From positions 1 through 64,000 of IMG/VR virus record IMGVR_UViG_3300025853_000035: DNA of 64,000 nucleotides; one strand, given 5' to 3'. The translations under genes and the position numbers were made by a program. This document shows positions 366 to 57,430 of the stretch, piece after piece (position 1 is the stretch's first letter; every line of letters begins with the position of its first letter). This DNA is from a virus. Taxonomy: Duplodnaviria > Heunggongvirae > Uroviricota > Caudoviricetes. Under the pieces are notes generated by a model. That model was not told the DNA's origin, did no database searches, and saw nothing but the letters and a program-made list of their open reading frames with translations.

Positions 366-440
366 TGTCTGTCTCCTTGCTGTTGATTCGTTTCTAGGCG
401 AAGGGACTGATTCGGTCAAGCACTTATTCCACAAAAAGAA
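366..440 (-). promoter_or_regulatory. conserved phage promoter plus leader (family copy, minus strand)
   Basis: Reverse complement reads GTGCTTGACCGAATCAGTCCC..TAGAAACGAATCAACAGCAAGGAGACAGACAATG. TTGACC -35, 17-nt spacer, TAGAAA -10, conserved leader and SD. Confidence 0.6.
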
Positions 441-459
441 AGAGGGGGCGTTAGCCCCC

Positions 460-645
460 TCAAATCATATCCTCCGGCGGATCAATCCCATAGTCGCCCC
501 TTGGGACGCCTTGCGGGTCTTCCTCGCGCTCTATGCGGGCGATTTCCGCCTCCGCCTCCGCTATGGTTGCCCAGCGCGATAGGACGCGCTGACGCAGGAA
601 ACCGTCCGGGCAATGGACGACGGCGACGCGGTGGCGCTTACTCAC
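460..645 (-). CDS. hypothetical protein (61 aa)
   Basis: ORF only. Start overlaps the stop of the upstream ORF, suggesting translational coupling in the 1044->460 operon. Confidence 0.3.
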   Translation of the reverse strand: MSKRHRVAVVHCPDGFLRQRVLSRWATIAEAEAEIARIEREEDPQGVPRGDYGIDPPEDMI

Positions 646-844
646 CGCCAGCCGTCCGAAAGGATGCGGCGGACTCCGCTTCGCCCAGCCATTCTAGTGC
701 GGCGGCGATTTCCATATTGGAGTCGTGCAACTCCTCCTCGGAATAGTCGCCATATTGCGACCCCTGAAAGACGGCATCGCCGTGGCAGTGCAGGGCGTTA
801 ATGATGGTTGCGCGGATCGCGTCCGGCATCGCGGGCGTCGTCAT
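638..844 (-). CDS. hypothetical protein (about 68 aa, starts MTTPAMPD)
   Basis: Internal ATG of ORF 638..919 overlaps the stop of 841..1044 (ATGA coupling). Confidence 0.3.
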   Translation of the reverse strand: MTTPAMPDAIRATIINALHCHGDAVFQGSQYGDYSEEELHDSNMEIAAALEWLGEAESAASFRTAGGE

Positions 845-1044
845 GCCTTCGCGTCCTCCGCCACCGTGCCGGTGATCTCGACATAATCGATCTCGTATTT
901 CATCGAGTCGATCTGCCACGATTCGGACAGGTCCACCTCATATTCATACATGAGTTCGAGGGCCTGTTCCGCCGTCTCCGCTTCCACGACGACGCGCTGG
1001 TGCGTGAATTCCGTCACCGTATAATCAACGAAAAACTTGGGCAT
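841..1044 (-). CDS. small acidic protein (67 aa)
   Basis: ORF with SD GGAGACAGAC plus ATG and an upstream promoter copy. Acidic composition. Confidence 0.5.
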   Translation of the reverse strand: MPKFFVDYTVTEFTHQRVVVEAETAEQALELMYEYEVDLSESWQIDSMKYEIDYVEITGTVAEDAKA

Positions 1045-1118
1045 GTCTGTCTCCTTGTTGGTGATTCGTTTCTAGTATGCTCCGCCGATTCGGTCAAGCA
1101 CTTTTTCCATATTATCCG
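1045..1118 (-). promoter_or_regulatory. conserved phage promoter plus leader (family copy)
   Basis: Reverse complement: GTGCTTGACCGAATCGGCGGAGCATACTAGAAACGAATCACCAACAAGGAGACAGACATG. Confidence 0.6.
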
Positions 1119-1183
1119 GGCTGGGCGTTAACCTTAACGGATGGTAACGGATGACAGGAAAGGGAGGCTTTCGCCTCCCTCCC

Positions 1184-1597
1184 TTAGTTCAGGCCGTATT
1201 CTTCCCGAAGGGCTTCCGCCTCCTCCTCGGTCTCGACCAGCAAGGCGCGGCGGATCATGCTTGTCATGTCGGCGCAGCCGTCCGCCTCGCCTTTCTCGTT
1301 CAGTTCTTCGATCAGGCCCAGCCGGGCTTGTTCGGACAGGCGGGGAGGGGCGTCGGCGACGGAAATGTAGGTTTCGCCGATCCGGGTCAGATATTCCGAA
1401 TGATGATCCTCGAAATATTCCGCAATGGCGTCAGCCTTATCCTCCGGCATCGCCTTGTCAGGATATTCGGTTTCCCACCAGTCGGCGACAAACGCATAAA
1501 TTTCCTCTTCCAGCACTTTCGGCGATTCCGCCACATAGACGTTATTGCCGTTGCCGTGCTCGATGACGGCGACATAGACGGTCGGGCCTTTCTTCAT
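1184..1597 (-). CDS. acidic hypothetical protein (137 aa)
   Basis: ORF, strongly acidic (many D/E). Co-transcribed behind 1594..1875. Confidence 0.5.
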   Translation of the reverse strand: MKKGPTVYVAVIEHGNGNNVYVAESPKVLEEEIYAFVADWWETEYPDKAMPEDKADAIAEYFEDHHSEYLTRIGETYISVADAPPRLSEQARLGLIEELNEKGEADGCADMTSMIRRALLVETEEEAEALREEYGLN

Positions 1598-1875
1598 GCG
1601 GCGATCTCCTTTTGCTTCGTGGCGTTGATGATGGCCTCTTCGATTTGCTCAAAGCACGCCGTTGTTTCGATCCGCAGGCCGGACGCGAGAATAATCGTGC
1701 AATGGTCCCAGATTTCGCGGTCAGCGTCGTTCCAGACGTTCAGGACCGCAGCGACGTGAGGGACGGCGATCATGGCGAAGCCCGGTCCGCAATCATCGCG
1801 GCGCGCTTGCTTTTCCCATATGTCCACTTCGATGAAGCCCGGCATGGGACTGCGTGCGAAAAAATGATCCGACAA
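1594..1875 (-). CDS. hypothetical protein (93 aa, non-ATG start)
   Basis: ORF preceded by a GGGAGACACG SD-like motif and a promoter copy. Confidence 0.45.
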   Translation of the reverse strand: MSDHFFARSPMPGFIEVDIWEKQARRDDCGPGFAMIAVPHVAAVLNVWNDADREIWDHCTIILASGLRIETTACFEQIEEAIINATKQKEIAA

Positions 1876-1950
1876 ATCGTGTCTCCCTATTTGATGATTC
1901 GTTTCTAGGTGAGGGGACCGATTCGGTCAAGCACTTTTTCCACCGATCAA
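1876..1950 (-). promoter_or_regulatory. conserved phage promoter plus leader (family copy)
   Basis: Reverse complement: GTGCTTGACCGAATCGGTCCCCTCACCTAGAAACGAATCATCAAATAGGGAGACACG. Contains the palindrome TGACCGAATCGGTCA. Confidence 0.6.
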
Positions 1951-2081
1951 TGGTTAACGGGCTGGACCGCCGCGTTAACCTTAACGAATGGTTAGGACCG
2001 GCAAGCCAAAGCGGCCGGACTCAAGAGAGTCCAGCCGCCAAGATGATAAGGATGATGCCGCCTATTAGGCGCGTGATGGCT

Positions 2082-2483
2082 TCAATTATCGGCGATCTCC
2101 CATGTAAGGACGAACCACGCTTGGCAGCTTTCCGCGCCGTCGTCGTCCGCATCCTCGTCCGGCACCTCCAGCGAAGCATCGAAAATCCGGGCAGGATCGA
2201 CGCCATCGAATGTCGCGTCGATAGCGGCGGCGATTGCCTCGTCTGTCACCTCGTCCGGCACGCGGTCGCCCGTCTGGCGCACCTCGTCGATGAGTCCTTT
2301 CCGAACGTCGTCAACGGTCGAATTGCCATCGACATAGACGCCGAAAAGGCATTCGCCATCGCGATTGTGATGATCCTGCAAATAGCAGCCGATGCAGGTA
2401 TCGACATGAACCATAGCGACGCCAGAGTCCGCGTCTTCGCGGAATGTGGCCAGTTGCTCTTGGGTCGAGAGAGGGAAGGGCAT
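2082..2483 (-). CDS. acidic hypothetical protein (about 133 aa, starts MPFPLSTQEQ)
   Basis: Internal ATG of ORF 2082..2546 is preceded by GGAGACAGAC. The C-terminus is very acidic. Confidence 0.45.
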   Translation of the reverse strand: MPFPLSTQEQLATFREDADSGVAMVHVDTCIGCYLQDHHNRDGECLFGVYVDGNSTVDDVRKGLIDEVRQTGDRVPDEVTDEAIAAAIDATFDGVDPARIFDASLEVPDEDADDDGAESCQAWFVLTWEIADN

Positions 2484-2562
2484 TGCGTCTGTCTCCTGTG
2501 CGACATTGCACGCCATCTTGCTAGGGGAGGAGAGTGATTCGGTCAAGCACTAATTCCACCGC
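2484..2562 (-). promoter_or_regulatory. conserved phage promoter plus leader (family copy)
   Basis: GATTCGGTCAAGCAC element on the plus strand at 2536-2552, the same family as the other copies. Confidence 0.5.
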
Positions 2563-2571
2563 GCAAATGGT

Positions 2572-2812
2572 TAACGGGCTGGGGCTGGGCGTTAACCTTA
2601 ACAGATGGAGGAAGTCGTTAACCTTAACGCCGCGTTAACCTTAACGGCTCCGGCGTTAACCTTAACGAAGTGGTGGATTTTGTTAACCTTAACGAACCGT
2701 TAACACTAACTAAGTCGTTAACCTTAACGGATCGGTCGATTTCGTTAACCTTACCCGGCCGGCGCGGTTTCGCGCGCGTTAACCATCGGCTGGGCGCGCG
2801 GCGACGATCGCG
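2572..2812. repeat. direct-repeat array of GTTAACCTTAAC (about 8-10 copies, spacers 4-14 nt)
   Basis: Seen directly: CGTTAACCTTAACG units recur between 2572 and 2812, with variants GTTAACACTAAC and GTTAACCTTACC. Confidence 0.9.
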
Positions 2813-2835
2813 GGCGCGGTTTTCAAAATCAGATG

Positions 2836-3026
2836 CAAAATGACCTTCGTCCATAACTCCCGGCGCAAAATGGCCTCGGTCCATAGAATCGCAAAATGAC
2901 CTCGATCCATAATAGCAGATGCAAAATGGCCTCGGTCCATAATTTTGCAAAATGACTTCGATCCATGACTTCGGAGCGGTCGCGGGCGATCACCCAGCAA
3001 AATGACCTCGATCCATGACATGGGAA
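2836..3026. repeat. direct-repeat array of CAAAATGACCTCGATCCATAA (about 7 copies)
   Basis: Repeated aaaatgaccttcgtccataa, aaaatggcctcggtccatag and aaaatgacctcgatccataa units. Confidence 0.9.
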
Positions 3027-3829
3027 GGCCCGTGGGAGGCTCAGGGAGCGCCACAGGGCGTCAGGAGGCCCCAGAAGGCACCGGGAGGACCTGTTGAGGC
3101 TCCACGGCGCTTAGAACGGCTCTGAGGGGCCTCCAGACGGGCACTGTAAAGCCAGAATGGCGGTCGAAGCACCAGAAAACGGGTCAAATCCGCCATTTTA
3201 CCCTCTGAGGGGTCAATTTCCCGGCCTTATGTCGCCAAATGTCCGTTTTTCGACATTACACCGACAGTTTCACTTGACATTGGTGGTGGAGCCGACCCGG
3301 CCGGGGTCCGATTTGACGAACCATCTTTTACAACATTAGGCTGTAAAATCACAAAATCTTTTTTCGACTTTGCCCCTTCAAACCCGCAGAAAACTGCCAT
3401 TTTCCCTTCTAATATTCCAATCTACAGATTGTGTGACTTTAGTCGGTGCAACATTACCGGCGCGGCGCGGCCTCAAGGGGACGATCCGGGACGCCGGACA
3501 TGGGTCGTCGATCGCTTCCCGAGGCTTCTCAGGGCGATTTGTGGAGGCGGCTGGAGGATGTGATGGAGGTGGGAGGGGGGCGTGCTGCCCGGAAATGGTG
3601 GAGATATGGGTGGAAGGAGTGATGGAAAATCGAAATCCAACACCCCGGCCTATGTCCTGACGGGGAGGGTCCCAGAGGTCTGGAGAAAAGGGGTCCCCGG
3701 CCCTTGCTCTGAGGGGGAGGGTCCCCTAGTCTGTGTCGTGGGGACCGTCGGCCGGATGTCGTTCGTCGGGGTCCCCCTGATCGGCGGGACGGTGCGGATG
3801 CAGGCTGGCGGACGAGAGCATGGCGGGCC

Positions 3830-3957
3830 TTTTGTTAAGGTTAACGCGGGGAGGGGATTTGTTAAGGTTAACGGATTGGAAGGTTTCGTTAAGGTTAACG
3901 CGGCCGGCATTTCTGTTAAGGTTAACGCCGGGAGCGATTTCGTTAAGGTTAACGACC
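3830..3957. repeat. array of GTTAAGGTTAAC (6 copies), the inverse orientation of the 2572-2812 array
   Basis: tgttaaggttaacg repeated with 12-20-nt spacers. It is the reverse complement of the GTTAACCTTAAC unit. Confidence 0.9.
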
Positions 3958-10868: not shown

Positions 10869-10869
10869 C

Positions 10870-15744: not shown

Positions 15745-15975
15745 ATGCGTAACTGCCTGACCTGCAAGTGGCGGGGACCGGCACGGACTCCGCAGTGCTC
15801 CAAGGAACCGGAGCATTCGGCGACCTGTGAATACCCGCTCCCGACCATCACCATGATCGGCTTCAACGTGACGGACGTGCGCCGCCACATCAATCTGGCG
15901 ACGATGTTGCCGGACAGTCCCTATTACCATGAGGCGCACGCTGCACAGGAATGCGCCACATGGGTTGACGCATAG
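15745..15975 (+). CDS. small Cys-rich protein (76 aa)
   Basis: CLTCKW..C..C pattern. Confidence 0.35.
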   Translation: MRNCLTCKWRGPARTPQCSKEPEHSATCEYPLPTITMIGFNVTDVRRHINLATMLPDSPYYHEAHAAQECATWVDA

Positions 15976-16038
15976 GACGAATCATCCTACGACAGTCTCA
16001 CACGACACTGAGTCGATTAGAAATAAAAGGAGACTGAC

Positions 16039-16356
16039 GTGGGCAAGGCCCTCACACATAATATCCGCTTCGAGGCCGAGGTCGGCACGCGCATCCTGCG
16101 ATCGCATTTCTGGGGCATCTGCGCGTCGGACGCCGACGGTCATGCCCTGTGGTGGTCGGACAAGGCGAAGCGCTGGTTGACGTGGGAAGAGTCCCGCGAA
16201 CTGCGGTCGGGATACAGCACCCACTATCACGGTCCGCGCACCTACAAGGCATTCCTGAGTCATCTGCGCGACCACCCGGAACTGGCCGGCGCGACCGTCA
16301 CGCTGGTAAGCCGCTTCCACGATCACAGCATCGTGGCCGAACCGACCATGCACTGA
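16039..16356 (+). CDS. hypothetical protein (105 aa)
   Basis: ORF preceded by the promoter-like GACAGTCTCACACGACACTGAGTCGATTAG and the SD AAAAGGAGA. Confidence 0.4.
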   Translation: MGKALTHNIRFEAEVGTRILRSHFWGICASDADGHALWWSDKAKRWLTWEESRELRSGYSTHYHGPRTYKAFLSHLRDHPELAGATVTLVSRFHDHSIVAEPTMH

Positions 16357-23198: not shown

Positions 23199-23440
23199 TG
23201 GGATGCCCGACCGGCAAGGTAATGCACCGGGGAAAGCGGAGCGCTCATAAGGCGCTCCTCAACGTCCAGAGCAGGACCGGCCGGTTGGTGCCTTACTTCT
23301 GTCCCAAGTGCCGGCATTGGCATCTGGGGAACACGCCGCAGACCCGGTTGGAGCGGATGAACAATCTGTTCGACCGGGTCGCCCAGCTTGACGCTGCCCG
23401 GATGGTGGATGAATCGGTGAACGGTGTGAATCACCGTTGA
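23198..23440 (+). CDS. zinc-ribbon protein (starts MGCPTGKVMH)
   Basis: CPTG..CPKCRHWH; ATG overlaps the upstream stop. Confidence 0.4.
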   Translation: MGCPTGKVMHRGKRSAHKALLNVQSRTGRLVPYFCPKCRHWHLGNTPQTRLERMNNLFDRVAQLDAARMVDESVNGVNHR

Positions 23441-23497
23441 CGTGGAGGAAGTATTGTCCTATTCCGATTCGCGAAGCAACGAACTTGGAGACAGACA

Positions 23498-24157
23498 ATG
23501 GTATACCTCACCGAAGCAGTCCACGACGCGCCCCACAGCACCGAAGTCGAGATCGTAGAGGTCTCGCAATCGACCTACGGTGAGGTCTATCTGATCAGCC
23601 GCAAGGATGGGAAGCTCTTCACCAAGGAAGATGGGTCCATTATCATGCTGGCCTCCGTCGCGCCATTCCGGGTATCTGACACCCTTCCGCGCGCGATCAG
23701 CGTGATCACCACCGCGCAGAAGGTGATCCAAGCCCGGCAGGGTGAACTCAAGGCGGAAGCCGACCGCCGCATCGCCGCCCTGAAAGCGGAGATCGCTGCT
23801 GAGCAGAAGGCCGAACTGAACCTACTGAGCGATCAGGCGCAGGCCCTTTATCGCGAGGAGAAATGGGCGGAACAGCGCGCGATCGTGGGCCACCCGCACG
23901 AAGGTAAGAAGGTCTACAAGACGATCCGTGCCGGCCGTATGGGTAAGCGCGAGGAGGTCGTCTTCGGCCTAATCGAAACGCGCCGCGCCGACACCAACTT
24001 GCCGGCAAATCGGGGCAACTGGAGCCTACCGAACATGGGCACCTCGTTCGTCCGCCTGCTCAAGAAAGATGGCAAACCGGGTCTCAATGTCGAGACTGCC
24101 TTTGCCGGTGATCCCCTACACGAAAATACCGGCTGGAAGCTGGTGGAGGAAGCTTGA
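23498..24157 (+). CDS. hypothetical protein (219 aa)
   Basis: ORF with an upstream promoter-family copy at 23440-23497 and SD GGAGACAGACAATGG. Confidence 0.5.
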   Translation: MVYLTEAVHDAPHSTEVEIVEVSQSTYGEVYLISRKDGKLFTKEDGSIIMLASVAPFRVSDTLPRAISVITTAQKVIQARQGELKAEADRRIAALKAEIAAEQKAELNLLSDQAQALYREEKWAEQRAIVGHPHEGKKVYKTIRAGRMGKREEVVFGLIETRRADTNLPANRGNWSLPNMGTSFVRLLKKDGKPGLNVETAFAGDPLHENTGWKLVEEA

Positions 24158-25595: not shown

Positions 25596-25596
25596 G

Positions 25597-25669
25597 TGGA
25601 TAAAGTGCTTGACCGAATCGGTCATCCGGCTTAATCCGATTCGTGTAACAACGGCTGAGGAGACAGGCG
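25597..25669 (+). promoter_or_regulatory. conserved phage promoter plus leader (family copy)
   Basis: GTGCTTGACCGAATCGGTCATCCGGCTTAATCCGATTCGTGTAACAACGGCTGAGGAGACAGGCGATG. Confidence 0.65.
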
Positions 25670-25852
25670 ATGACCATGATTGAACTGAACCCGGAATCGA
25701 AAGCGCCACACGCCTATGGCGTCGGCGTCTGGGACGGCAAGGACCCCAAGACGATCACGGATGTGCTGGTCCGAGCGACGAACCGCGATCAGGCTGCTCG
25801 CATCGCCGAGCGCGCCGGCTACGTCGCCCGCGACGTGAACATGGTCGGCTGA
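25670..25852 (+). CDS. hypothetical protein (60 aa)
   Basis: ORF after a promoter/SD copy. Confidence 0.4.
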   Translation: MTMIELNPESKAPHAYGVGVWDGKDPKTITDVLVRATNRDQAARIAERAGYVARDVNMVG

Positions 25853-26289: not shown

Positions 26290-26522
26290 TCGTTCAGTCC
26301 CCCACGCCCTCCTATCCCGGTATGGTTCTCCCGTCCGTCGGTCTGCTCCACCGGCTTGGGGCGCAGTTGAAAGCGCTGCGGGAATCCCGTGCCAGCCTGC
26401 CGTGGTGGCAGCGCAAGAACAAGCACATCCTCACCGGGGCGATCGCCGCCTACGAGGTCGAGATCGAAGACCTCAAGGCGCTGATGGCGAAGACCGTGGC
26501 TGACACCGACATTATGGCTTGA
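26286..26522 (+). CDS. hypothetical protein (78 aa)
   Basis: ORF only. Confidence 0.35.
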   Translation: MIVQSPTPSYPGMVLPSVGLLHRLGAQLKALRESRASLPWWQRKNKHILTGAIAAYEVEIEDLKALMAKTVADTDIMA

Positions 26523-26581
26523 CATCGAGTCAGGTCCAAGCCTACTAACAGGCAATCAAGAATCACTCGGAGACAGCCTTA

Positions 26582-30944: not shown

Positions 30945-30979
30945 TTCGGTGTCACCAACAACGACTCAGGAGACAGACC

Positions 30980-31342
30980 ATGGATTTCGACTCGATCGAA
31001 CGCGCTGAACGGGACTTCGCCAACAACTTCATCACGACCCTCGCGCTCACGCTGGGTGCGCTGCCGGTCAAGACGGCGGAGACCATGGCGAAGGCGGCCT
31101 ACAAGGTCTGCTGCGACACCTGCGTCGCCTACGGTCAGAACCCCGATTACGAGGTCTTCATGAAGACCCCGGAAGAATCCGGCGACTTCCTCGGCGGCCA
31201 GCCGGGCGTCTGGATCGTGTGTTGGGAGAGCGGCCCGTTCCAGTGGGCGATCCCCGCGAGCATGGAGATCGGCTCCACCACCGGCAAGCTCGTCGAACCC
31301 TATTACAGCTTCGACCTGACCTTCTATCCGAGCGAGGACTGA
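30980..31342 (+). CDS. hypothetical protein (120 aa)
   Basis: Promoter/SD copy at 30921-30982 (TTGACGAACCGGAAGAATCGTCCTAGTTC...AGGAGACAGACCATGG). Confidence 0.5.
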   Translation: MDFDSIERAERDFANNFITTLALTLGALPVKTAETMAKAAYKVCCDTCVAYGQNPDYEVFMKTPEESGDFLGGQPGVWIVCWESGPFQWAIPASMEIGSTTGKLVEPYYSFDLTFYPSED

Positions 31343-33193: not shown

Positions 33194-33279
33194 TAGATTA
33201 AGTGGTGAACGAATCGGTTGACCGGGCAGTCGAATCATCCTAGATGAAGTCACAGACAGAATAAGGAGACAGACACAGA

Positions 33280-33639
33280 ATGCTTGCTTCATCTCAGGTT
33301 GCCGTAGACCGCGCCGCAGCGTCCGACGCCACCATCCTTCGCCCGATGCCGCGCCGGGGCCGTCAGGGCTTGCCGCCCATGAAGGAAAAGCCGACCGTGC
33401 GCTATTACAACACCGCCGGCTATCTGGTGCGGGAAGCCATGATCGAGACCGGCATCGACCACCACGATCTGATCCACGCACTGCTGGAGCGCGACCATAC
33501 GGTCGAAGACATCAAGGCGATGTCTCCTCGCAAGCGCCTGCAAGAATATCTGCACTGGAATTTCTACATGGACCGCGCGGACGTGATCCTTGCTGTTGCC
33601 GACGCTGCCGGCCTGACCGGGGAGGGCGCACACGCATGA
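33280..33639 (+). CDS. hypothetical protein (119 aa)
   Basis: Promoter/SD copy at 33196-33279 (GGTTGACCGGGCAGTCGAATCATCCTAGATG...AAGGAGACAGACACAGAATG). Confidence 0.5.
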   Translation: MLASSQVAVDRAAASDATILRPMPRRGRQGLPPMKEKPTVRYYNTAGYLVREAMIETGIDHHDLIHALLERDHTVEDIKAMSPRKRLQEYLHWNFYMDRADVILAVADAAGLTGEGAHA

Positions 33640-39792: not shown

Positions 39793-41148
39793 ATGAAGAA
39801 ACAGCTTACGGCGGCCTTCGTCAAGGGCCTCAAGCCCGGTCCGAAGAAACAGGTGATCACTGATTCTGTGGCGGCCAACCTCCGCCTGATCGTCCACCCG
39901 ACCGGGCGAAAGATTTGGGCATGGCAAGGCAAGGTGAACGGTGAGCCGAAGACGGTGACGCTGGGTCAGTGGTTGGAGACCGGAGGCATGGACCTGTCCG
40001 CCGCCCGCGAGCGAGCGACCGAGATCAACACCGCCAAGGTCGAGGGAAGAGCGGTGAGCTTCCTAACGCCCAGCGAGGAGTCATCCGAGCCGGCGATCGA
40101 CCCGCGCGCCTCCCTCACCTGCGACTGGATGTTCGATCAATATATGGCGGCCGAGGGCGAGACGAGGAAGACGGCCAAGGAGAAGCGGACCACCTACAAC
40201 CGGGAGATCAAACCGACGCTGGGTGAGCGGCAGATCGACACCATCACCTACGACGATCTGGCGGCGATCGTGCAGAAGAAGTTTGCGGAAGGGAAGGGGC
40301 CGGCGTCGAACCGGCTCAAGGCGCTCATCGCCCGCTGGTGGAAGTGGGGCGTCTCGCGCGGCCGGGCCGTGACCGGTCTGACCGTCAACCCGGCGATCGA
40401 TCTGGTGAGCCTCGCCGACGAGAACAAGCGTCGTCGCTACCTCACGAATTACGAGATCGGGGTGTTCTTCAAAGGAACCTATTTGGCTCGTGACACCTTC
40501 GCTGAGATGATGACCGTCATCCTCTACACCGGCCTGCGACGGAGCGAGGCGGCCGGTCTGACATGGGACGAGGTCCGCTTCCACGACAACACGATTCTGA
40601 TCAGCGGTGAGCGGATCAAGAACGGGTTGGACCTGCTGCTGTGGATGCCGGACACGGTGGTCGCGATCCTGCGCCAACGCAAGCGCCTCACCGGCAATTA
40701 CAAATACGTCTGGCCGGCCCCGTTCTCGTGGAGGCAGGGCGAGACGGTCGATGAAGACGAGGACACGTCGAAGGAGCTAATCAGCTTCACGAAGCCCATG
40801 AACGCGCTCAACGAGACCTGCCAGAAGCTGGCGGCGAAGGAGCGGAAGACCATGGAGCGGTTCACCGTCCACGATCTGCGTCGCACGCTGGCGACGGGTA
40901 TGCGGGGATTGAGGGATGCCGAGGACAAGCCTCTCATCCTGTCGGACATCGTCGAGCGGGTCATCAACCACATCATCGGCGGCGTCCGGGGCAACTACGA
41001 TCACCACGACTATTTCGCGGAGAAGAAGGCGGCGCTCCGCATTTGGGCGGAGCACCTTGATCCGATCAGGCTGACCGCTCACGCAGCCATTGAGAAAACT
41101 CACTCCGCAGCCAGCGGGTCGCCTGCACGTTCACTGGCTGAGGCATGA
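39793..41148 (+). CDS. int: tyrosine integrase (P4-type)
   Basis: N-terminal arm-binding domain (LTAAFVKGLKPGPKK...ANLRLIVHPTGRKIWAWQGKVNG, DUF4102-like) and a catalytic region with HDLRRTLATGM and a C-terminal Tyr. Adjacent to a tRNA fragment and arm repeats. Confidence 0.9.
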   Translation: MKKQLTAAFVKGLKPGPKKQVITDSVAANLRLIVHPTGRKIWAWQGKVNGEPKTVTLGQWLETGGMDLSAARERATEINTAKVEGRAVSFLTPSEESSEPAIDPRASLTCDWMFDQYMAAEGETRKTAKEKRTTYNREIKPTLGERQIDTITYDDLAAIVQKKFAEGKGPASNRLKALIARWWKWGVSRGRAVTGLTVNPAIDLVSLADENKRRRYLTNYEIGVFFKGTYLARDTFAEMMTVILYTGLRRSEAAGLTWDEVRFHDNTILISGERIKNGLDLLLWMPDTVVAILRQRKRLTGNYKYVWPAPFSWRQGETVDEDEDTSKELISFTKPMNALNETCQKLAAKERKTMERFTVHDLRRTLATGMRGLRDAEDKPLILSDIVERVINHIIGGVRGNYDHHDYFAEKKAALRIWAEHLDPIRLTAHAAIEKTHSAASGSPARSLAEA

Positions 41149-41461: not shown

Positions 41462-41530
41462 CCGTCTTGACCCATCGGACAAATCTTCCTATTCGCTTCT
41501 CATCAACAACGACTCGAAGGAGACAGACCG
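41462..41530 (+). promoter_or_regulatory. conserved phage promoter plus leader (family copy)
   Basis: TTGACCCATCGGACAAATCTTCCTATTCGCTTCTCATCAACAACGACTCGAAGGAGACAGACCGATGG. Confidence 0.6.
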
Positions 41531-41920
41531 ATGGCTTTCAAGATCACCAAGACCGACAACGCCCGCGTGATGAAGCTGGCCGGCGAACTCGACGATATGC
41601 GAACCGAGATCAACGACAAGCTCGACGAATGGCGGGGCGAACTGAGCGGCCTGCTCGACGCCCTCAACGAGAAGCGTGAGGAACTGCGTGGCGTGATCGA
41701 GGACATCCAAGCCGAACAGCAGAGCGCCTATGACGACATGTCGGAGCGCTGGCTCGAAGGCGACCGCGCCTCGCCCACCGAAGACTGGATCGGCGCGCTT
41801 GCGGATGCGGAGGCATTGGTCTCCGACGACTTCACGTTCGAACTGCCTGACGAAATGGAATTCGACGACGAGTTCGAAACCCTCAAGGACGAGGGTCTGC
41901 CCACCGAGCCGGAATATTGA
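41531..41920 (+). CDS. highly acidic protein (129 aa); candidate DNA-mimic or anti-restriction protein
   Basis: Strongly acidic composition (D/E-rich C-terminus DDFTFELPDEMEFDDEFETLKDEGLPTEPEY). First gene after int/xis. Confidence 0.45.
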   Translation: MAFKITKTDNARVMKLAGELDDMRTEINDKLDEWRGELSGLLDALNEKREELRGVIEDIQAEQQSAYDDMSERWLEGDRASPTEDWIGALADAEALVSDDFTFELPDEMEFDDEFETLKDEGLPTEPEY

Positions 41921-42001
41921 AACGGCAAAATGGCGGTTGACGAACCGGAAGAATCGTCCTAATTCGACCCCATCAACAACGAATCGAAGGAGACAGACCC
42001 T

Positions 42002-42352
42002 ATGGCTCAGAAGCTCATCCTTGATGACCAGATGGAGGTGCTGCGGCAGAACGGGGCGGTCGCCTCGCGCTCCGGCGACGGCAGCGATCTTCGTCCCGTG
42101 CTCAAGCTCTTCACCCCGGACGGCGCGGCGACGTGGCTTATCTCCGAGATCGATGCCGACGGCGACACGCTGTTCGGTCTGTGCGATCTGGGCCTCGGAG
42201 AACCAGAGCTTGGTTACGTCTCGCTGACCGAGATCAAGTCGATCCGGGGCGGGCTGGGTCTCCCGGTCGAACGGGACATCTCGTTCACCCCGACGATGAC
42301 CATGGCCGAATATACCACCAAGGCTCGCCGGGCCGGCCGGATCGTTCTTTGA
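42002..42352 (+). CDS. DUF2958-like protein
   Basis: LFTPDGAATWLISEIDADGDTLFGLCDLGLGEPELGYVSLTEIKSI resembles DUF2958. Promoter copy at 41922-42001. Confidence 0.4.
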   Translation: MAQKLILDDQMEVLRQNGAVASRSGDGSDLRPVLKLFTPDGAATWLISEIDADGDTLFGLCDLGLGEPELGYVSLTEIKSIRGGLGLPVERDISFTPTMTMAEYTTKARRAGRIVL

Positions 42353-43877: not shown

Positions 43878-45344
43878 ATGAGCTATATCACGACCATCGG
43901 GGAACTGCTGAACCAGCCGATCCTCAACAGCGACACCTACAAGAACAGCCACTGGACGTTCGAGCACCCGCAGTTCACTTCGAGCTACGGCTACATCGAA
44001 GCCCGTAAGGGTGGCGAGTTCAGCGAGGTCATGTTCTTCGGCCTGCAATACCTGCTGCGCTATTACCTGACCCAGCGCGTCACCGACTCGGTGATCGCCC
44101 ACGCCCGCCGCTTCCTCCCGCTGCACGGCGTGCCGTTCAACGAAGAAATGTGGACGACCATCCGCGACAAGCACGATGGCCGGTGGCCGGTGCGGATCAA
44201 GGCGCTTCCAGAGGGCGTCCTCGTCCCGCAGGGCTGTGTCCTTGTCACGGTGGAATCGCTCGACGAGGAATGCGCCGGTGTCGCCGCGTTCGTCGAAACC
44301 CTGCTGCTTCGCGGCGTCTGGCTCCCCACCACGATCGCCACCCGGTCGATGCGCTGGTGGCGTCTGGTCGATCGCTACCTCACCCAGAGCGGCACGCCGG
44401 AGACGGCGGAGTTCAAGGTGGTGGACTTCTCGGCGCGCGGCGTCCGGTCGTCCGAGGACGCAGGCATCTCCGGCATGGCCCATCTCCTGAACTTTCAGGT
44501 GACCGACAATCTGCTTGGCATCCTGTTCGGCCAGAACGCCTACACGACCGAAACCATGCTGGGATATTCGATCCCGGCGACCGAGCACTCGGTCACCACG
44601 TCGTGGGGCAAGGAAAACGAGCAGGCGTTCTTCGAGCACATTCTCGAAGTCCATGGCCAGACCGTGAACCCGCTGGGCGGCCGGTCGCCGGTGTCGGTGG
44701 TGATCGACACCTACGATCAGGACAACGCCGTCCGCATGTGGCTGACGCCGGCCGAGAAGGGCGGTTGCGGCCTCCGCGAGAAGCTGGAAGCGTCGAACAT
44801 GTGCGTCGTGCTGCGGCCGGACTCGGGTGATCCGATCATCAACGTCGTCCACCTGCTCGACCTGATCGGAAGCCTGACGGGCTGGACGGTCAACGAGAAG
44901 GGCTTCCGCGTCCTCCCGGATTTCGTTCGCGTCATTCAGGGCGACGGCATCCACGAAGAATCGCTGCGCCGCATCCTCCAGCGTGTGGTCTACCACACTT
45001 GGTCGATCGACAACCTGACCTTCGGTTCGGGCGGTGGTCTGATGATGCACGACGTGGAGCGCGACACCCACCGCTTCGCCATGAAGACCTCGGAAGTGGT
45101 CATCGGCGGTATCACCAGCGCCGTCCGCAAGGAGGTCAAGACCGATCCGTCCAAGGCATCCAAGGCCGGGCGCTTCGCAGTGGTGATGGAGAACGACGTG
45201 CTGATCACCATCCCGGAAGACGAACTCAACGGTCGTCTCAACTATCTGCGGACGGTCTACGAGGACGGCGAACTGGTCGCCCCTGAGACGTTCGATCAGG
45301 TCCGGGAGCGCGCTCGCCAGTGGCGCGTCATCGGGCACGGCTAA
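43878..45344 (+). CDS. nadV: nicotinamide phosphoribosyltransferase (NadV/NAMPT)
   Basis: N-terminus LNQPILNSDTYKNSHW matches the NAMPT DT/SYKxxH signature. 488 aa. Confidence 0.8.
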   Translation: MSYITTIGELLNQPILNSDTYKNSHWTFEHPQFTSSYGYIEARKGGEFSEVMFFGLQYLLRYYLTQRVTDSVIAHARRFLPLHGVPFNEEMWTTIRDKHDGRWPVRIKALPEGVLVPQGCVLVTVESLDEECAGVAAFVETLLLRGVWLPTTIATRSMRWWRLVDRYLTQSGTPETAEFKVVDFSARGVRSSEDAGISGMAHLLNFQVTDNLLGILFGQNAYTTETMLGYSIPATEHSVTTSWGKENEQAFFEHILEVHGQTVNPLGGRSPVSVVIDTYDQDNAVRMWLTPAEKGGCGLREKLEASNMCVVLRPDSGDPIINVVHLLDLIGSLTGWTVNEKGFRVLPDFVRVIQGDGIHEESLRRILQRVVYHTWSIDNLTFGSGGGLMMHDVERDTHRFAMKTSEVVIGGITSAVRKEVKTDPSKASKAGRFAVVMENDVLITIPEDELNGRLNYLRTVYEDGELVAPETFDQVRERARQWRVIGHG

Positions 45345-45349
45345 TGGAA

Positions 45350-45377
45350 GGGCCGCCCTCCGGGGCGGCCTTTTTTA
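45350..45377 (+). terminator. rho-independent terminator
   Basis: GGGCCGCCCTCCGGGGCGGCCTTTTTTAT. Confidence 0.75.
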
Positions 45378-45402
45378 TGGAATAAGTGATTGACTGAATA
45401 TC

Positions 45403-46314
45403 TTGCTTCCCGTAAATGCTATGGCTCAACCGGAGAAGGAGACAGCCTTGAATTTCATCGACCGCATCTGTGAAGACGAACCCCTCGCGCGCGAACTGTT
45501 CGAGGGCGTCAGGGTCGTCACGGTGCATGACGATGTCTATCAGGCGGCTGTCGAACTGATGGAACGCGACGCGACCAAGATCGCCGGCATCGCCAAGTTC
45601 ACCTGCTGGCCGGACTATAACACATGGATCGAAATCCCAGCGCCCAAGGGGCAGCACACGATGGGGTTCTTGTTCTATGGCGGCCTCACGAAGAAAGAGC
45701 AGAGCGTCACGGCAGGCCATGGGCTGGTGTTCATCGGCTTCCCTGATGGTGAGATCATGGCCATCCCTGTTCGCTACGATCTGGAGAGCTACAGCCTCGT
45801 ATGGGCAGATCATCACCAGCTTGCCGCCCGCGCCGCCAAGGCCAACAACGCCAGCCCGGCTGTCCTGTCCCTGCTTGCGATCCACCAGCGGGCGACGACT
45901 GATCCCATCCTGATCCACTCGCAATATGCGGGCGTGCTCGATCACGCCAAGCCGCTGATGTTCTCGCTGCTGGCGTTCATCAATTCACCGAAGCTCGTCC
46001 GCATCCGGGAATGCGACAAGGCGCGGCTGAACGCCCGCCGACTCAAGCGTGGGAAATATCCCTTCCATCCGCATCACGAGGTGCGGCTCAACATCGACAA
46101 GCACATCCTGAGCATCACACAGGGGCAGGGGGACGGCCCTGAGCGCGAACTGCACTTCGTCCGGGCGCATCTGCGCTTCCTCGTCCACCCACGCTACAAG
46201 AACGTCTCCGTGACGCTGGTGCAGCCCCACTACCGGGGCAACCCGGAACTTGGCATCTTGAACACCAGCTATGCGATCGACCGGACGAACTCCCGGTGGA
46301 AGGATGCGGAGTAA
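45403..46314 (+). CDS. hypothetical protein (303 aa)
   Basis: ORF only. Confidence 0.45.
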   Translation: MLPVNAMAQPEKETALNFIDRICEDEPLARELFEGVRVVTVHDDVYQAAVELMERDATKIAGIAKFTCWPDYNTWIEIPAPKGQHTMGFLFYGGLTKKEQSVTAGHGLVFIGFPDGEIMAIPVRYDLESYSLVWADHHQLAARAAKANNASPAVLSLLAIHQRATTDPILIHSQYAGVLDHAKPLMFSLLAFINSPKLVRIRECDKARLNARRLKRGKYPFHPHHEVRLNIDKHILSITQGQGDGPERELHFVRAHLRFLVHPRYKNVSVTLVQPHYRGNPELGILNTSYAIDRTNSRWKDAE

Positions 46315-46416
46315 GTGAGGGACGAGTCCGCTGCGCGGACTCGTGGAGAAAGTGCTTGACCAATTCGCCGGGCTGAACTATCTGAGTCGCAGCAACAGCG
46401 AATCAGGAGACAGACG

Positions 46417-47352
46417 ATGTGCGGAACTTGTGGAAACCTTGCTCACGACGATCTCGACGATGACATCGGCGACATCTTCGGCACGGGCCAGATGAGCACC
46501 GAGGACGCCGCACGCGCTGCTGAGTTCGCCAAGGCTGTCTCGGACAACACCCGCCCGGCCGCCGGCCCGGTTCTCTATTGGGACACCTGTGGCTCGTGCC
46601 GTGGGTCGGGCAACTTCATCACCTATTCCGGCCGCGTCGGTGGGGCCTGCTTCAAGTGCAAGGGCAAGGGACAGGTTCCCTTCAAGACCTCACCGGAGAA
46701 GCGGGCGGCTGATGCCGAGCGCAAGCGCAAGAACCTCGCCACCAAGCTCGAAGCCTTCGTCACCGCCCACGCGGACGAATGGGCATGGATCGCGACGGAG
46801 GCTCCCAAGTTCGACTTCGCCAAGAGCATGTTCGACAAGCTGCTCAAGGATGGTGAACTGACGCCCGGCCAGTTGGCAGCGGTGCAGAAGCTCATCGCCC
46901 GCGAACAGGCCCGCACTGAGGCGGAGGCCGCCCAGAAGGAAGCCGCGCCGGTGATCGAGGAAGCATCACTCGCCAAGATCGAGGAGGCATTCGCCGCTGC
47001 GATCGCCCGCGACATCGCGCGTCCCAAGCTGCGCCTCGATACCTTCATGTTCTCGCCGGCCCGGTCGGGCGTGAACGCCGGGTCGATCTACGTCAAACAC
47101 CTCACGGAAACGAACCGTGATGGGGAGAAGCGCTACCTCGGCAAGATCACCGATGGGAAGTTCCTCAAGTCGTGGGGCTGCACCCCTGAGGAAGAGCAGC
47201 GGATCATTGCCGCTGCCATGGACCCGCTGGCCGCCGCCACTGCCTATGGCCGCCGTGAGGGCAGGTGTTCGTTCTGCGGGCGCAAACTCACGAAGTCGGA
47301 ATCAATCGACCGGGCGATAGGCCCGATCTGTGCAGAGAATCTAGGTTGGTAA
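46417..47352 (+). CDS. Cys-cluster (zinc-binding) protein, 311 aa
   Basis: Promoter/SD copy at 46351-46416. CGTCGN...CGSCRGSG..CFKCKGKG and C-terminal CSFCGRK...GPICA. Confidence 0.5.
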   Translation: MCGTCGNLAHDDLDDDIGDIFGTGQMSTEDAARAAEFAKAVSDNTRPAAGPVLYWDTCGSCRGSGNFITYSGRVGGACFKCKGKGQVPFKTSPEKRAADAERKRKNLATKLEAFVTAHADEWAWIATEAPKFDFAKSMFDKLLKDGELTPGQLAAVQKLIAREQARTEAEAAQKEAAPVIEEASLAKIEEAFAAAIARDIARPKLRLDTFMFSPARSGVNAGSIYVKHLTETNRDGEKRYLGKITDGKFLKSWGCTPEEEQRIIAAAMDPLAAATAYGRREGRCSFCGRKLTKSESIDRAIGPICAENLGW

Positions 47353-47411
47353 GGCTTGACCAACCGGAAGATTTGTCCTATTCCAGATTCATCAGCAACA
47401 AGGAGACAGAC

Positions 47412-47696
47412 ATGACGCAACTCGAAAAGAACCTCGCAGCGCTGCCGGCGCACTGCTACTCGATCCTCAACACGACCGGCGAACTGATCATCATCAAGCG
47501 CGGCGAGACCGGCTACTTCCCCACGGAAGGCTACACGGAGAACGAGCACTGCACGTTCGAGCAACTGGTGGTGATCCTCAACAACCGCATGGGCGTCAGC
47601 CCGGCGCAGCGCTTCGCCATGGACATGGGTTCGATGTTTGGATGGGACATCCCCGGTGCCCATCCCGATGTCCACGCCGACCGGGTGGTCGCATGA
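47412..47696 (+). CDS. hypothetical protein (starts MTQLEKNLAA)
   Basis: Promoter/SD copy at 47347-47410 (AGGAGACAGACATG). Confidence 0.5.
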   Translation: MTQLEKNLAALPAHCYSILNTTGELIIIKRGETGYFPTEGYTENEHCTFEQLVVILNNRMGVSPAQRFAMDMGSMFGWDIPGAHPDVHADRVVA

Positions 47697-49530: not shown

Positions 49531-49764
49531 CTATTGGGGAGCAAGCTCGCGCGCTGCCGCCAATTCCTCCATCTTCCCCAGCCCGTAGGTGTCCGCATAG
49601 GCCATGAGGACCGTCACATAGTAAGGAGCGCCCTCAGCCTCCCAGCGACGCGTCGCCCGGCCGCCGGAGGAAAACCCCATCAACCGGTCAAGCTGACTCT
49701 GGTCGATCTTGTGGCGATCCCGGAAGTCTTTGACCGACTGTGCGGGTGTGCGGGCATCAGCCAT
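49531..49764 (-). CDS. XRE-family HTH protein (Cro/CI-like or antitoxin-like), about 78 aa
   Basis: KIDQSQLDRLMGFSSGGRATRRWEAEGAPYYVTVLMAYADTYGL is an HTH_XRE-like motif. Last gene of a three-gene minus-strand operon. Confidence 0.6.
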   Translation of the reverse strand: MADARTPAQSVKDFRDRHKIDQSQLDRLMGFSSGGRATRRWEAEGAPYYVTVLMAYADTYGLGKMEELAAARELAPQ

Positions 49765-56700: not shown

Positions 56701-56913
56701 CTCGACCACGTCGGGATTACCCGCGACGAAGATGCCGACAGCATCGCCGGTGTCAGTGACCAGATCGATCCACGGGTCGTTGGCATTTGACGCCCACGCG
56801 CCGACTTGCAGGAGATCATCGCTCGTGAACTCGTTCCCATCAGCATCGGAAACGGTGATCGCGCCGGTCGTGCGATCGAACAGATCGCAGATGAATTTGG
56901 TGTATAGAGCCAT
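53755..56913 (-). CDS. DNA primase/helicase (P4/D5-family NTPase C-terminal domain)
   Basis: 1052 aa. Walker A VITGGKGTGKSTL and Walker B FFVLRCSD in the C-terminal half, consistent with a phage/plasmid primase P4-type C-terminal domain. Central poly-acidic linker (EEDEEEEEEP). Confidence 0.65.
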   Translation of the reverse strand: MALYTKFICDLFDRTTGAITVSDADGNEFTSDDLLQVGAWASNANDPWIDLVTDTGDAVGIFVAGNPDVVEPQPSFDVSGGMIYMLDGDPVSGQKSGLHLCPLSVFLDSKGKVNLDGLNWYLPQDLDIQTPGTMTNITLMTGRRRDEAQGKWKEVSSTFGQFETMLQDHKEGQKDGPCFLQGQSANGARKAVAMIANHILGVDLDSGAPLDDVMRTIQQHGLEAVIYTTHSHLKNTSVIKRDHFMKWAEASEVEEEAVRDYLIKKKGVLPAIVEELTILDDAHHSEDGVVILVQHKPMPKFRAVFPLKEAFVFAKRGGSQKDAIDEWKERYAGFCTALDLFFDEKCVDPARLFYLPRHASKDKAFGSWVVCGEPLDLDKFDRVKMRRGRDNKRSAVASNAFTAAGGADDGDEDDANRYITSGGFNLKGWSIKHAKRFDVQAMLEDVIGGDFIREGRGNKAGVHVECPFEAEHSSFGGGGTFVVNASDNLEDGYEGGFTFNCTHNACSGRDRLDYLKELIEQELITPADLTNKDYLFELEEDEEEEEEPVKPKKPTPRADAPTTDEAEEPEFEDDDLDFGDSEETMLRAFNRRYAVIRTSGGVKILVEPRSADDDVIFETQGDVKLFEKNRVIWIAEGKQSKKLAGFDLWLEWDKRRTYRQVVFAPGRRVAKDIYNLFRGWPYEPVPTTWENILDNKDEPVAGDWSMLRGHIYENICESNDEYFEWLMTWLAMLFQKPEAKPGSTLVITGGKGTGKSTLFDFINKLLGFHGITVSQRKQIVGQFNGHLETALLMVCEEAFWAADPQAEGVLKDMITNKSVLIEKKGYDPIQSENYTRLALISNNDWVVPASLKDERRFFVLRCSDARQGDLEFFGLMREQMDKKGGLQAMLHDLLHWKPVKGTFASLFTPPKTDHLQKQQIETLSGVQKFMLELVKSGLYETSDENRFPSIELNDDRETMVYAKDLRAAVSDYVRFLFSSDKAKTSFDDISTVVGDWFGAREVKMKLDGQTNQSRVFIFPPLSQVRANLKESKGLDIEIMSEEDVKAMKVRGL

Positions 56914-56920
56914 GAGGACC

Positions 56921-57367
56921 TTATTTGGTGAGGTTGAGATCGTAGGTGGTCACCGGGCCACCTGTGTTCTTGTCGTGCAGCGAGGCTGCTTCGACGGCCT
57001 CTTCGGCGGTAGCCCCTGCGGCCAGCGCACCGAGGGCCAGCATCGTCCCGGAGCCGATTGCGGTGTAATCGGCATAGATCGGGACGAGGTGTCCATCATC
57101 GAATTCATAGGCGCGGCCGGAAACACGATCGACGAGCAGCGCGGAGAATTCGGAGGTGTTGTTGAGAAGGTCGGCCGGAACTTCGTCGCTATGACAACCG
57201 TCCTTGACCCACTTTTCGAGAATGCGCCGGTAACAGACAGCACCAGCCAGCGCGACGAGGTAATTGCCGCATTCGGCGATCTTGTCCCGGTGGCCATTTG
57301 TGTAGGTGTTATAGGCGATTAGGGTATCGGCAGCGAGGACGCCGTCGCGATAGCAGATGGTAGTGAT
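56921..57367 (-). CDS. HslV/proteasome-like Ntn-hydrolase protease (Thr1 directly after an unusual ATC initiator)
   Basis: TTICYRDGVLAADTL...AIGSGTMLALGALAAG aligns with HslV (TTIVSVRRNG...AIGSGGPYAQAAARAL). The listed 189-aa ORF contains a family promoter (TTGACA-N17-TATCTC) and SD GGAGACGGACC inside its N-terminal extension. The codon right after the SD is ATC, followed by ThrThr. Confidence 0.55.
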   Translation of the reverse strand: MTTICYRDGVLAADTLIAYNTYTNGHRDKIAECGNYLVALAGAVCYRRILEKWVKDGCHSDEVPADLLNNTSEFSALLVDRVSGRAYEFDDGHLVPIYADYTAIGSGTMLALGALAAGATAEEAVEAASLHDKNTGGPVTTYDLNLTK

Positions 57368-57394
57368 GGTCCGTCTCCGCCGGGTGAATGGGTG

Positions 57395-57430
57395 CGGAGA
57401 GATAATCGAAACTGTCGTTGGTGTCAAGTT
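57395..57430 (-). promoter_or_regulatory. promoter-family copy driving the HslV-like gene
   Basis: Reverse complement: AACTTGACACCAACGACAGTTTCGATTATCTC ... GGCGGAGACGGACCATC. Confidence 0.5.

Follow-up and report, generated by a model that had tools for sequence, protein, structure and literature searches.

IMGVR_UViG_3300025853_000035 is an IMG/VR record of a Caudoviricetes virus, and the window analyzed here is the 64,000 nucleotide (nt) stretch at positions 1–64,000 of that record. The question raised by this DNA is what the repeated promoter-like cassette ahead of many of its genes represents, and what reads it. The window contains at least 17 copies of the cassette, each co-oriented with a gene that starts 53–65 nt downstream. 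A first-pass annotation had listed 15 sites as near-identical sigma70-like promoters, each with a conserved leader and Shine-Dalgarno (SD) sequence. On sequence evidence, the copies form a real, clade-wide family of early promoter-leader-SD cassettes of host sigma-70 type. They share their anatomy, their orientation and fixed distances, and these are conserved across a phage clade. The notion of a family thus stands, but near-identity was overstated, as there are two subfamilies plus generic sites. All but one of the 15 listed sites belong to the family; the exception, at 57395–57430 (minus strand), is a looser TTGAC promoter of another type which carries GGAGACGGAC. Copies that had not been listed are at 15965(+), 26519(+), 45390(+), 57855(-) and 57605(-).

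Anatomy and conservation of the cassettes

The pattern TTGAC-N16–18-YTA is found at 27 sites in the window. Nearly all of them fall in intergenic DNA or at the end of a gene and point towards a start codon on the same strand, which for most of the 27 is located 53–65 nt downstream. The two subfamilies among them are termed class A and class B. The order of parts is an upstream element or conserved spacer, a -35 element (C)TTGAC, a 17-nt spacer, a -10 element CTAnnn, a leader of 20–30 nt and the box (A)AGGAGACAGAC. The upstream element and core of class A are GTGGAAAAAGTGC-TTGACCGAATC-N-CCTAGAAACGAATCA, and the full form is (G)GAAWAAGTGC-TTGACCGAATC-N11-CCTAGAAACGAATCA-CAACAA-GGAGACAGAC. Class B has the form TTGACG-AACC-GGAAGAATCGTCCTAnTTC...CAACAACGAATCGAA-GGAGACAGAC. 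Both classes display a short A/C-rich unstructured leader followed by the box GGAGACAGAC. The conserved leader that had been described is present among the copies as CGATTCG / CGAATCA ... CAACAAC ... GGAGACAGAC.

Class A heads small one-gene units beside the terminase gene, in a region equivalent to the terminal-repeat region of relatives, and also a few other genes. Class B heads operons within a long plus-strand block of small genes. Gene content and the position of class A by the terminase suggest that A and B are most likely early classes. A third promoter type is found in Erythrobacter phage XM05, with the form CACCGACATTCT-N3-TTGACA-..CACCGCCATTYT.GCTWWAC. It is located ahead of replication and structural genes and has no GANTC sites; examples in XM05 (pieces L001–L003) are at 9743, 14992, 17774, 49226 (minus strand) and 53613 (minus strand). 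Looser examples in the window are at 57427(-), 48130(+) and 20292(+). The third type is probably a middle or late class.

The window has a base composition of 60.5% G+C. Its genes include a terminase, many small open reading frames (ORFs), NAMPT and NMNAT enzymes, RtcB, a 1052 amino acid (aa) primase-like protein and a block of 11 tRNA genes. The primase-like protein has 76% identity to that of XM05, 66% to that of vB_EliS-L02 (L02), 64% to that of Sphingobium phage Lacusarx and 56% to that of Citromicrobium phage RXM. A megablast search of the window DNA against phage records gave no matches. The window is assigned to a new member of the Lacusarx/XM05-like siphophages, which are related to PhiCbK, and the host is very probably a sphingomonad (Sphingomonadales, Alphaproteobacteria).

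The XM05 genome contains class A about 20 times and class B about 12 times, and recognizable versions of both classes are present in Lacusarx and L02. Many IMG/VR contigs carry the class A core 15-mer GTGCTTGACCGAATC in arrays, the largest of 19 copies. In a set of 177 unique class A copies, the upstream GTGGAAAAAGTGC shows 1.2–1.9 bits per position and the A of CTAGAA 1.9 bits. This A is the position flipped out by the sigma-70 factor. Since the classes recur in XM05, L02, Lacusarx and IMG/VR contigs in which DNA similarity is not detectable, they are under selection.

The copies could also be alike mainly by descent, as a mobile promoter-leader cassette (moron-like, or of the kind in which T4 joins an early promoter to a stem-loop, PeSL) that was spread through duplication or recombination; they would then share only RNA polymerase and the ribosome as regulators. 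Such an origin would fit the presence of cassettes before unrelated small ORFs, the terminators often found directly upstream (442–461, ~45340–45375, ~46310–46340) and a box that travels with the promoter rather than being the general SD of the phage. However the same sequences occur in phages with otherwise unalignable DNA, and the 177 distinct copies display position-specific conservation, which requires purifying selection on the cassette sequence itself. A stem-loop of the PeSL kind is also missing. Descent by itself is rather unlikely.

Folding bears on two further points. When 16 leaders were folded the mean z was +0.39, i.e. slightly less structured than the shuffled controls, and no conserved hairpin was found; the suggestion that the leader carries a conserved structure of its own is not borne out. 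For 17 whole cassettes the mean z was -0.29, with a minimum of -2.2. The first-pass annotation had itself named terminators or repetitive extragenic palindromic (REP) elements as the alternative to promoters. Repetitiveness alone would suggest such structured repeats, but the cassettes show no excess folding, and their orientation and distance to start codons are fixed. This alternative is extremely improbable.

The early promoter families of T7 (A1–A3), T5 and T4 are made up of many near-identical strong host-type promoters that drive early genes. The phage family resembles these, and the T4 PeSL cassettes, in placing a repeated cassette before unrelated small ORFs. It differs in that conservation of the unit extends to the leader and SD, in that it is common to an alphaproteobacterial phage clade and in the absence of a stem-loop: neither cassettes nor leaders have the excess structure that membership in a PeSL-type family would entail. 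The cassette family itself is a variant of these well-known early promoter families.

Probable recognition by the host polymerase and candidate regulators

The copies are best read as strong early promoters that would be recognized by the host primary (RpoD-type) RNA polymerase, each fused to a standardized translation-initiation unit. A probability of about 0.75 is given to this reading. The alphaproteobacterial RpoD (sigma-70/sigma-73) consensus, quoted for rhizobia in PMC3384568, is CTTGAC-N17-CTATAT. The phage sites read CTTGAC-N17-CTAGAA or CTTGAC-N17-CTATTC, and thus the exact (C)TTGAC, the spacing and the first three positions of the -10 agree with the consensus, as does the invariant A. 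The -35 is GCTTGACC in class A and TTGACG or TTGACC in class B. The exact -35, the 17-nt spacing and the invariant T-A that opens the -10 uphold the earlier description of sigma70-type promoter, leader and SD units. The promoter reading is likewise upheld by strict co-orientation with genes at a fixed distance and by retention in relatives that lack DNA similarity. Transcription would begin about 7 nt after the -10. The phage sites differ from the RpoD promoters in the 3′ half of the -10, which is GAA (class A) or TTC (class B) in place of TAT, in the strongly conserved upstream element and spacer, and in the built-in GANTC sites. A further comparison consensus is the Caulobacter promoter form TTGACgS-N10-14-GCTANAWC.

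Several points weigh against recognition by the host enzyme. A scan of the window with the E. coli-type sigma-70 consensus recovers none of the copies because their -10 has no terminal T, and with this T missing, recognition by the host holoenzyme alone has to be assumed. The missing T probably also explains why the BPROM-based annotation of Lacusarx reported no such promoters. Both the class B spacer GGAAGAATCGTCC and the upstream element of class A are conserved far beyond ordinary sigma-70 needs, which hints at an extra factor. In addition, the paralogous copies are not independent observations.

One candidate for such a factor is a host system. GANTC is the target of the alphaproteobacterial methyltransferase CcrM, and GAATC/GATTC recur throughout the cassettes. 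The window has 151 GANTC sites where 381 ± 22 are expected from a first-order model, and their density is 4.7 per kb in intergenic DNA versus 1.75 per kb in coding DNA. The bias reported for host genomes that encode CcrM is the same, with GANTC depleted overall and enriched between genes (PMC3973325). Over 114 regex-defined promoters in three phages, GANTC is enriched 7.5-fold in the 55 nt that start at the -35; the next-best gapped palindrome in these 55 nt reaches 2.8-fold and is an artefact of TTGACA. At least one GANTC, within 40 bp of the presumed start, is found in 20 of the 27 window sites and in 37 of 52 XM05 sites. Offsets from the first T of TTGAC are +6, +14, +28–30 and +44, i.e. 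about -27, -20, -3 and +10 from the presumed start, and copies without one of these sites tend to have another.

The GANTC sites of the promoter windows are mostly TGATTCG or CGATTCG, and about 90% match YGAKTCK, the form preferred by GcrA. The share of YGAKTCK is 27/30, 61/68, 21/21 and 18/31 in the promoter windows of four phages, compared with 23%–42% elsewhere. GcrA is a sigma-70 cofactor that activates methylated promoters with YGAKTCK sites, and in GcrA-activated promoters of Caulobacter the motif is found around -20 and at +2 to +30 (Haakonsen et al. 2015, PMC4647560). For Sphingomonadales, bioinformatic work has proposed a GcrA regulon (PMC7987155). The class B sites (+14 and +44 from the -35, ~-20 and +10) fall in both Caulobacter zones, and the fit appears good for class B and approximate for class A. 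At all four positions the GANTC sites of the cassettes would be methylated by host CcrM and read by GcrA, and because GcrA is a sigma-70 cofactor, early transcription would follow the methylation state or the host cell cycle. Involvement of GcrA and CcrM at the cassettes is given slightly less than an even chance. The location within 40 bp of the presumed start and the ~90% match to YGAKTCK are shared with the Caulobacter GcrA/CcrM promoters. The differences are that a phage rather than a set of cell-cycle genes is concerned, that class A sites are at ~-27 and -3, and that the host genus is inferred.

A number of observations count against GcrA and CcrM. The class A sites at ~-27 and -3 are outside of the two Caulobacter zones, and the -20 GANTC is absent from all class B copies of L02. 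Pfam scans of the 114 predicted window proteins (concatenated) detected neither a sigma factor nor GcrA nor a DNA methyltransferase. By tblastn, a GcrA sequence had no match in the window, XM05 or Lacusarx, which is weak evidence. The methyltransferase of XM05 and Lacusarx was considered as a member of the CcrM class and rejected, as its motif I precedes NPPY; its locus is outside the region represented by the window. A published scan of phage genomes with a GcrA matrix found that the site distribution was not skewed.

Alternatively the classes may be defined by a phage-encoded factor, with GANTC incidental. This could be a sigma-like or activator protein, a mimic of the C-terminal domain of the RNA polymerase alpha subunit (alpha-CTD) or a repressor, and it would bind the class B spacer (an imperfect dyad, GGAc-N5-gTCC) or the class A element GTGGAAAAAGTGC. 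Spacer and upstream element are conserved in four phages and many IMG/VR contigs beyond the needs of sigma-70, and in L02 the spacer motif persists without any GANTC. Lacusarx has a 256-aa helix-turn-helix (HTH) protein annotated as SigA, with a sigma region-4-like C-terminus, and L02 is annotated with an alpha-CTD-like protein; the window has only a 77-aa HTH homologue of the N-terminal repeat of Lacusarx SigA, at 49531–49764 (minus strand). However transcription of the earliest genes has to precede the synthesis of phage proteins, except for a protein that is injected, and the -35, spacing and -10 fit a host-type consensus. No sigma-family domain is present among the 114 window proteins. The YGAKTCK flank preference is seen at several positions in both classes, which a single protein-binding site would not explain. 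A phage factor is possible but unlikely. As a separate observation, the sigma region-4-like C-terminus of Lacusarx SigA is missing in the window and XM05 homologues.

The first-pass annotation had also placed a palindrome, TGACCG-N3-CGGTCA, over the -35 of many copies as an operator for a dimeric regulator. The window has one exact match (25610) and one with a single mismatch (1915). A search that allowed spacers of 2–8 nt matched only 25610 and 63318, and the palindromic operator was rejected as a feature of the family, the consensus of which keeps only ACCGAATCGGT of the palindrome, centred on a GANTC site. The half-sites said to recur at 63322 correspond only to the 63318 site, a different element with a 6-nt spacer. 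A shared regulator of the family is plausible; the sequence points to host factors, not to a protein with a recognition helix matched to TGACCG. Candidates among host factors are CcrM/GcrA, through GANTC, and CtrA, through CtrA-box-like repeats upstream of the terminal-array copies.

The 63318 site is part of a 24-nt hairpin-like palindrome, ATATGACCGCCCTATCGGTCATAT, which spans 63315–63338. This palindrome closely follows a TTGACC within the 97 nt that separate tRNA-Thr from tRNA-His, and it is unrelated to the promoter family.

The CtrA-box-like repeats are restricted in location. TTAACC/GGTTAA hexamers number 19 in the window, and 17 are within 1128–3947. The sequence CGTTAACCTTAACG, an inverted repeat CGTTAA-CC-TTAACG, is present in 14 copies, with two opposed arrays that flank a gene-free stretch beside the terminase. 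A role as CtrA-box-like or iteron-like sites is possible for these repeats, which may lie at the boundary of the terminal repeat. Of 176 class A copies in the wider family, 154 (88%) have TTAACC within 60 nt upstream, with phased peaks at -25, -36 and -48, and the core GTTAACCTTAAC is found 39 times in XM05, 40 times in L02 and 8 times in Lacusarx. Binding of CtrA to the terminal-repeat promoters of PhiCbK-like phages, and the dependence of these promoters on CtrA, have been shown experimentally, and Lacusarx is listed as having the same CtrA signature (Mascolo et al. 2022, PMC9437464).

The window resembles the phages of that ‘lytic deferment’ system (PMC9437464) in its related lineage and in having TTAACC boxes in a gene-poor region by the terminase, upstream of small early genes. 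It differs in the dominant box. The CtrA box is defined as TTAA-N7-TTAA or the half-site TTAACCAT, whereas the main window repeat, CGTTAA-CC-TTAACG, is TTAA-N2-TTAA. It also differs in that TTAACC-type boxes are near only three of the eight class A copies and none of class B. CtrA is the best-documented candidate for a shared regulator, although one that would touch only part of the family; the repeats would add a second host input at the terminal-array copies. A promoter-like TTGACG-N17-TTAGGC at 3313–3345 (plus strand) points into the gene-free, repeat-flanked stretch and has no ORF behind it.

The ribosome-binding box and a candidate complementary small RNA

The box GGAGACAGAC is present in 13 exact copies in the window, and 24 matches are found with at most one mismatch (5.3 ± 2.3 in shuffles). 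Twelve exact copies are 0–5 nt before a start codon. Leaders span 19–40 nt, mostly 19–31 nt, between the presumed start and the start codon, and are rich in A/C and poor in U. Of 53 GGAG-type SDs in the window only 19 are GGAGAC, and each of these belongs to a promoter-proximal gene. By this distribution, the box is a part of the promoter unit and not the general SD of the phage. As the dominant 10-mer it has 12 copies in the window, 20 in XM05, 26 in L02 and 4–25 per array in IMG/VR contigs; Lacusarx is the exception and has no dominant 10-mer box.

The sole exact box that does not precede a gene is at 57548–57557 (plus strand), where the minus strand reads UUGUCUGUCUCC. This sequence is within a candidate small RNA unit on the minus strand which, by its sequence, has a promoter-like site of its own, no ORF and a strong predicted Rho-independent terminator, the features of a small RNA gene. 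The predicted P1 stem CCGCCGGA/UCCGGUGG, of 8 bp, encloses a 27-nt loop with UUGUCUGUCUCC (57559–57548). The terminator at 57523–57496 is a hairpin GGCCCGGUCCUC/GAGAGCCGGGCC followed by the U-run UUUUCUUU. Each of XM05, L02, Lacusarx and six IMG/VR contigs has a homologue, and in all of them it is located between the transfer-messenger RNA (tmRNA) gene (Rfam) and the HslV-like gene. Ten homologues keep a 7–10 bp stem with different sequences, e.g. GTGTCCCGGA/TCCGGGACAC in L02 and GCGTCTCGGA/TCCGAGACGC in L249, and compensatory substitutions appear to preserve the stem, whereas UGUCUCC does not vary. This comparison covers few independent lineages.

CUCC is predicted to be unpaired with a probability of 0.8–0.97 in four of five homologues tested; in Lacusarx the first position is at 0.51. 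The complement between loop and SD box spans 10–14 nt. Genomes with the full 10-mer in their leaders carry the full 10-mer complement in the RNA loop, and in Lacusarx, where the leaders share only GGAGAC(A), the loop carries only CAUGUCUCC. Among the ten best duplexes of the loop seven are with promoter-proximal leaders, at -22 to -27.5 kcal/mol versus a median of -15.3. The nucleotide beside the box is complementary to the RNA in the window (A/U) and in an IMG/VR group (C/G), mixed in XM05 and mismatched in L02. Two variant loops occur. For UUUGUCUCC (IMG/VR 3300008005_000408) the four leaders seen do not have the matching box GGAGACAAA, and for GCUGUCUCC (IMG/VR 3300045450_000055) the matching box form would be GGAGACAGC; too few leaders are available for either loop, and the comparison leans, if at all, slightly against covariation of loop and leader.

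A protein-based explanation of the box was also considered, in which GGAGACAGAC is a double-stranded DNA operator or roadblock for a phage protein and the inverted copy at 57548–57557 is another operator. The invariance of the 10-mer next to variable flanks and the single opposite-orientation copy would be in keeping with this. However all other copies are in one orientation at 0–5 nt from a start codon, as expected of an SD, and the inverted copy is within a hairpin with compensatory stem changes and is followed by a terminator on that strand only. An operator is therefore very unlikely. Pairing of the RNA in cis with the SD of the HslV-like gene was rejected, as GGAGA is missing from this position in L249.

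Only a trans-acting form of riboregulation is plausible, by way of the separate phage RNA whose loop matches the SD box in complement. That the RNA pairs with leader boxes across the whole regulon is a hypothesis, and one less likely than not. Such pairing would explain the conservation of ACAGAC, since this part of the box does not pair with 16S rRNA; the invariance of GGAGACAGAC would then be kept partly through pairing with the small RNA.

Comparison RNAs are small RNAs with anti-SD loops, namely the Betaproteobacteria toxic small RNAs of RF02278 and the alphaproteobacterial CcsR/‘cuckoo’ RNAs, and also P1 c4 and P22 sar, the last two being phage antisense RNAs that occlude the ribosome-binding site. 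The phage RNA shares with them a pyrimidine-rich hairpin loop with CUCC, a terminator that follows and complementarity to a ribosome-binding site. It differs in that its target box is common to 12–26 phage mRNAs per genome rather than being one target. The RNA is not a member of RF02278 (23.1 bits versus a gathering score of 50).

In RXM the arrangement differs from the antisense RNA of the other phages. Upstream of its proteasome-like gene (L008, ~2930–3030) an 11-bp stem has a loop with the sense box GGAGACTGAC, 24 nt before the ATG.

The two systems may be combined in the cassette. A two-level control of the early regulon is put forward as a speculative proposal that is unlikely to hold in full. 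At the first level the cassettes would provide high-affinity GcrA/CcrM sites, and transcription would depend on GANTC methylation (incoming versus newly replicated DNA) or on the stage of the host cell cycle. At the second level the loop UUGUCUGUCUCC of the ~85-nt RNA (57487–57571, minus strand) would pair with GGAGACAGAC(AA) of at least 12 early mRNAs and would switch their translation together. If the pairing holds, the small RNA would be an RNA counterpart of the T4 RegA protein.

Published genome papers on the large PhiCbK-/Lacusarx-like alphaproteobacterial phages used only E. coli-trained promoter predictors, and no description of the promoter family was found in the Lacusarx, L02, PhiCbK or CtrA papers. 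The family provides a model of promoter, leader and SD for a clade of environmental phages, marks early genes and is a source of compact, strong parts for gene expression in sphingomonads. Two new leads are the GcrA-type methylation sites within the cassettes and the small RNA that is complementary to the box. If GcrA reads the GANTC sites, the phage would exploit the host cell-cycle epigenetic system at its own promoters, as a complement to the use of CtrA that has been reported. Should the small RNA pair with the box, control of a whole regulon by one phage RNA through a standardized leader would be unusually clear here.

Feature coordinates and neighbouring genes

Table 1. Cassettes, other promoter-like sites, the candidate small RNA unit and TTAACC-type repeats in the window.
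Feature	Site	Position	Strand	Remarks
Class A cassette	419	363–432	-	GGAATAAGTGC-TTGACCGAATC...CCTAGAAACGAATCA...GGAGACAGACAATG; terminator hairpin just upstream, 442–461
Class A cassette	1097	1042–1110	-	GTTAAGGTTAAC box ~36–46 nt upstream of -35
Class A cassette	1930	1873–1943	-	SD variant GGGAGACACG, TTG start; GTTAACCAT and GTTAAGGTTAAC boxes upstream
Class A cassette	2546	2481–2559	-	Divergent -10 and leader; first copy after the CGTTAACCTTAACG repeat array
Class B cassette	15965	15965–16041	+	TTGACG..GGACGAATCATCCTA, longer leader, GGAGACTGAC, GTG start
Class B cassette	23437	23437–23500	+	Spacer GGAAGTATTGTCC without GANTC; GATTC after -10
Class A cassette	25609	25596–25672	+	Sole copy with perfect TGACCGAATCGGTCA palindrome
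Generic TTGACA promoter-like site	26519	26519–26584	+	Leader box GGAGACAGCC
Class B cassette	28512	28512–28575	+	
Class A-like cassette	29273	29260–29335	+	TTGACCGAATC; divergent -10
Class B cassette	30919	30919–30982	+	GAATC in spacer (~-20); GACTC just before SD
Class B cassette	33218	33218–33282	+	
Class B cassette	41467	41467–41533	+	
Class B cassette	41937	41937–42004	+	Core identical to 30919 copy and XM05 copies
Class A-like cassette	45390	45377–45450	+	AAGTGATTGACTGAATA; terminator directly upstream; box GGAGACAGCC
Class A cassette	46356	46343–46419	+	AAGTGCTTGACCAATTC
Class B cassette	47356	47356–47414	+	
Class B promoter core	57855	57828–57855	-	No ORF behind; reads into RNA-gene region
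Third-type TTGACA promoter	57427	57367–57427	-	Upstream CACCGCAATTCT, with GGAGACGGAC; precedes HslV-like gene
Candidate anti-leader small RNA unit	57605	57487–57605	-	Promoter TTGACC(57605–57600)-N16-CTATCA; predicted transcript ~57571 to 57487, ~85 nt
Seven CGTTAACCTTAACG copies (TTAACC boxes)		2590–2756	+	Upstream of terminal class A array
Five CGTTAACCTTAACG copies, inverted set		3833–3954	-	
Single CGTTAACCTTAACG copies		1126–1139 and 1973–1986		

The HslV/proteasome-like gene is at 56921–57367 (minus strand). Its product aligns with those of relatives (MTTIAYR...) from residue 1, and ATC is present in place of their ATG. The ATC is either used as a non-canonical start or due to an error in the sequence.

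Several RNA-like matches are found on the minus strand upstream of this region, none of which was called by ARAGORN. The sequence at 57946–58400 is a phage-encoded two-piece (permuted) alphaproteobacterial tmRNA, with 68.8 bits to RF01849 and 79.6 bits to RF04321. A weak tRNA-Sec-like match of 19 bits is at 58439–58562, and a lone T-arm-like match to tmRNA is at 57721–57737.

A 451-aa ORF of the tyrosine-integrase family, with Phage_integrase and Phage_int_M domains, is located at 39793–41148 (plus strand) and is preceded by a 498-nt gap. The relatives of this phage are described as virulent.

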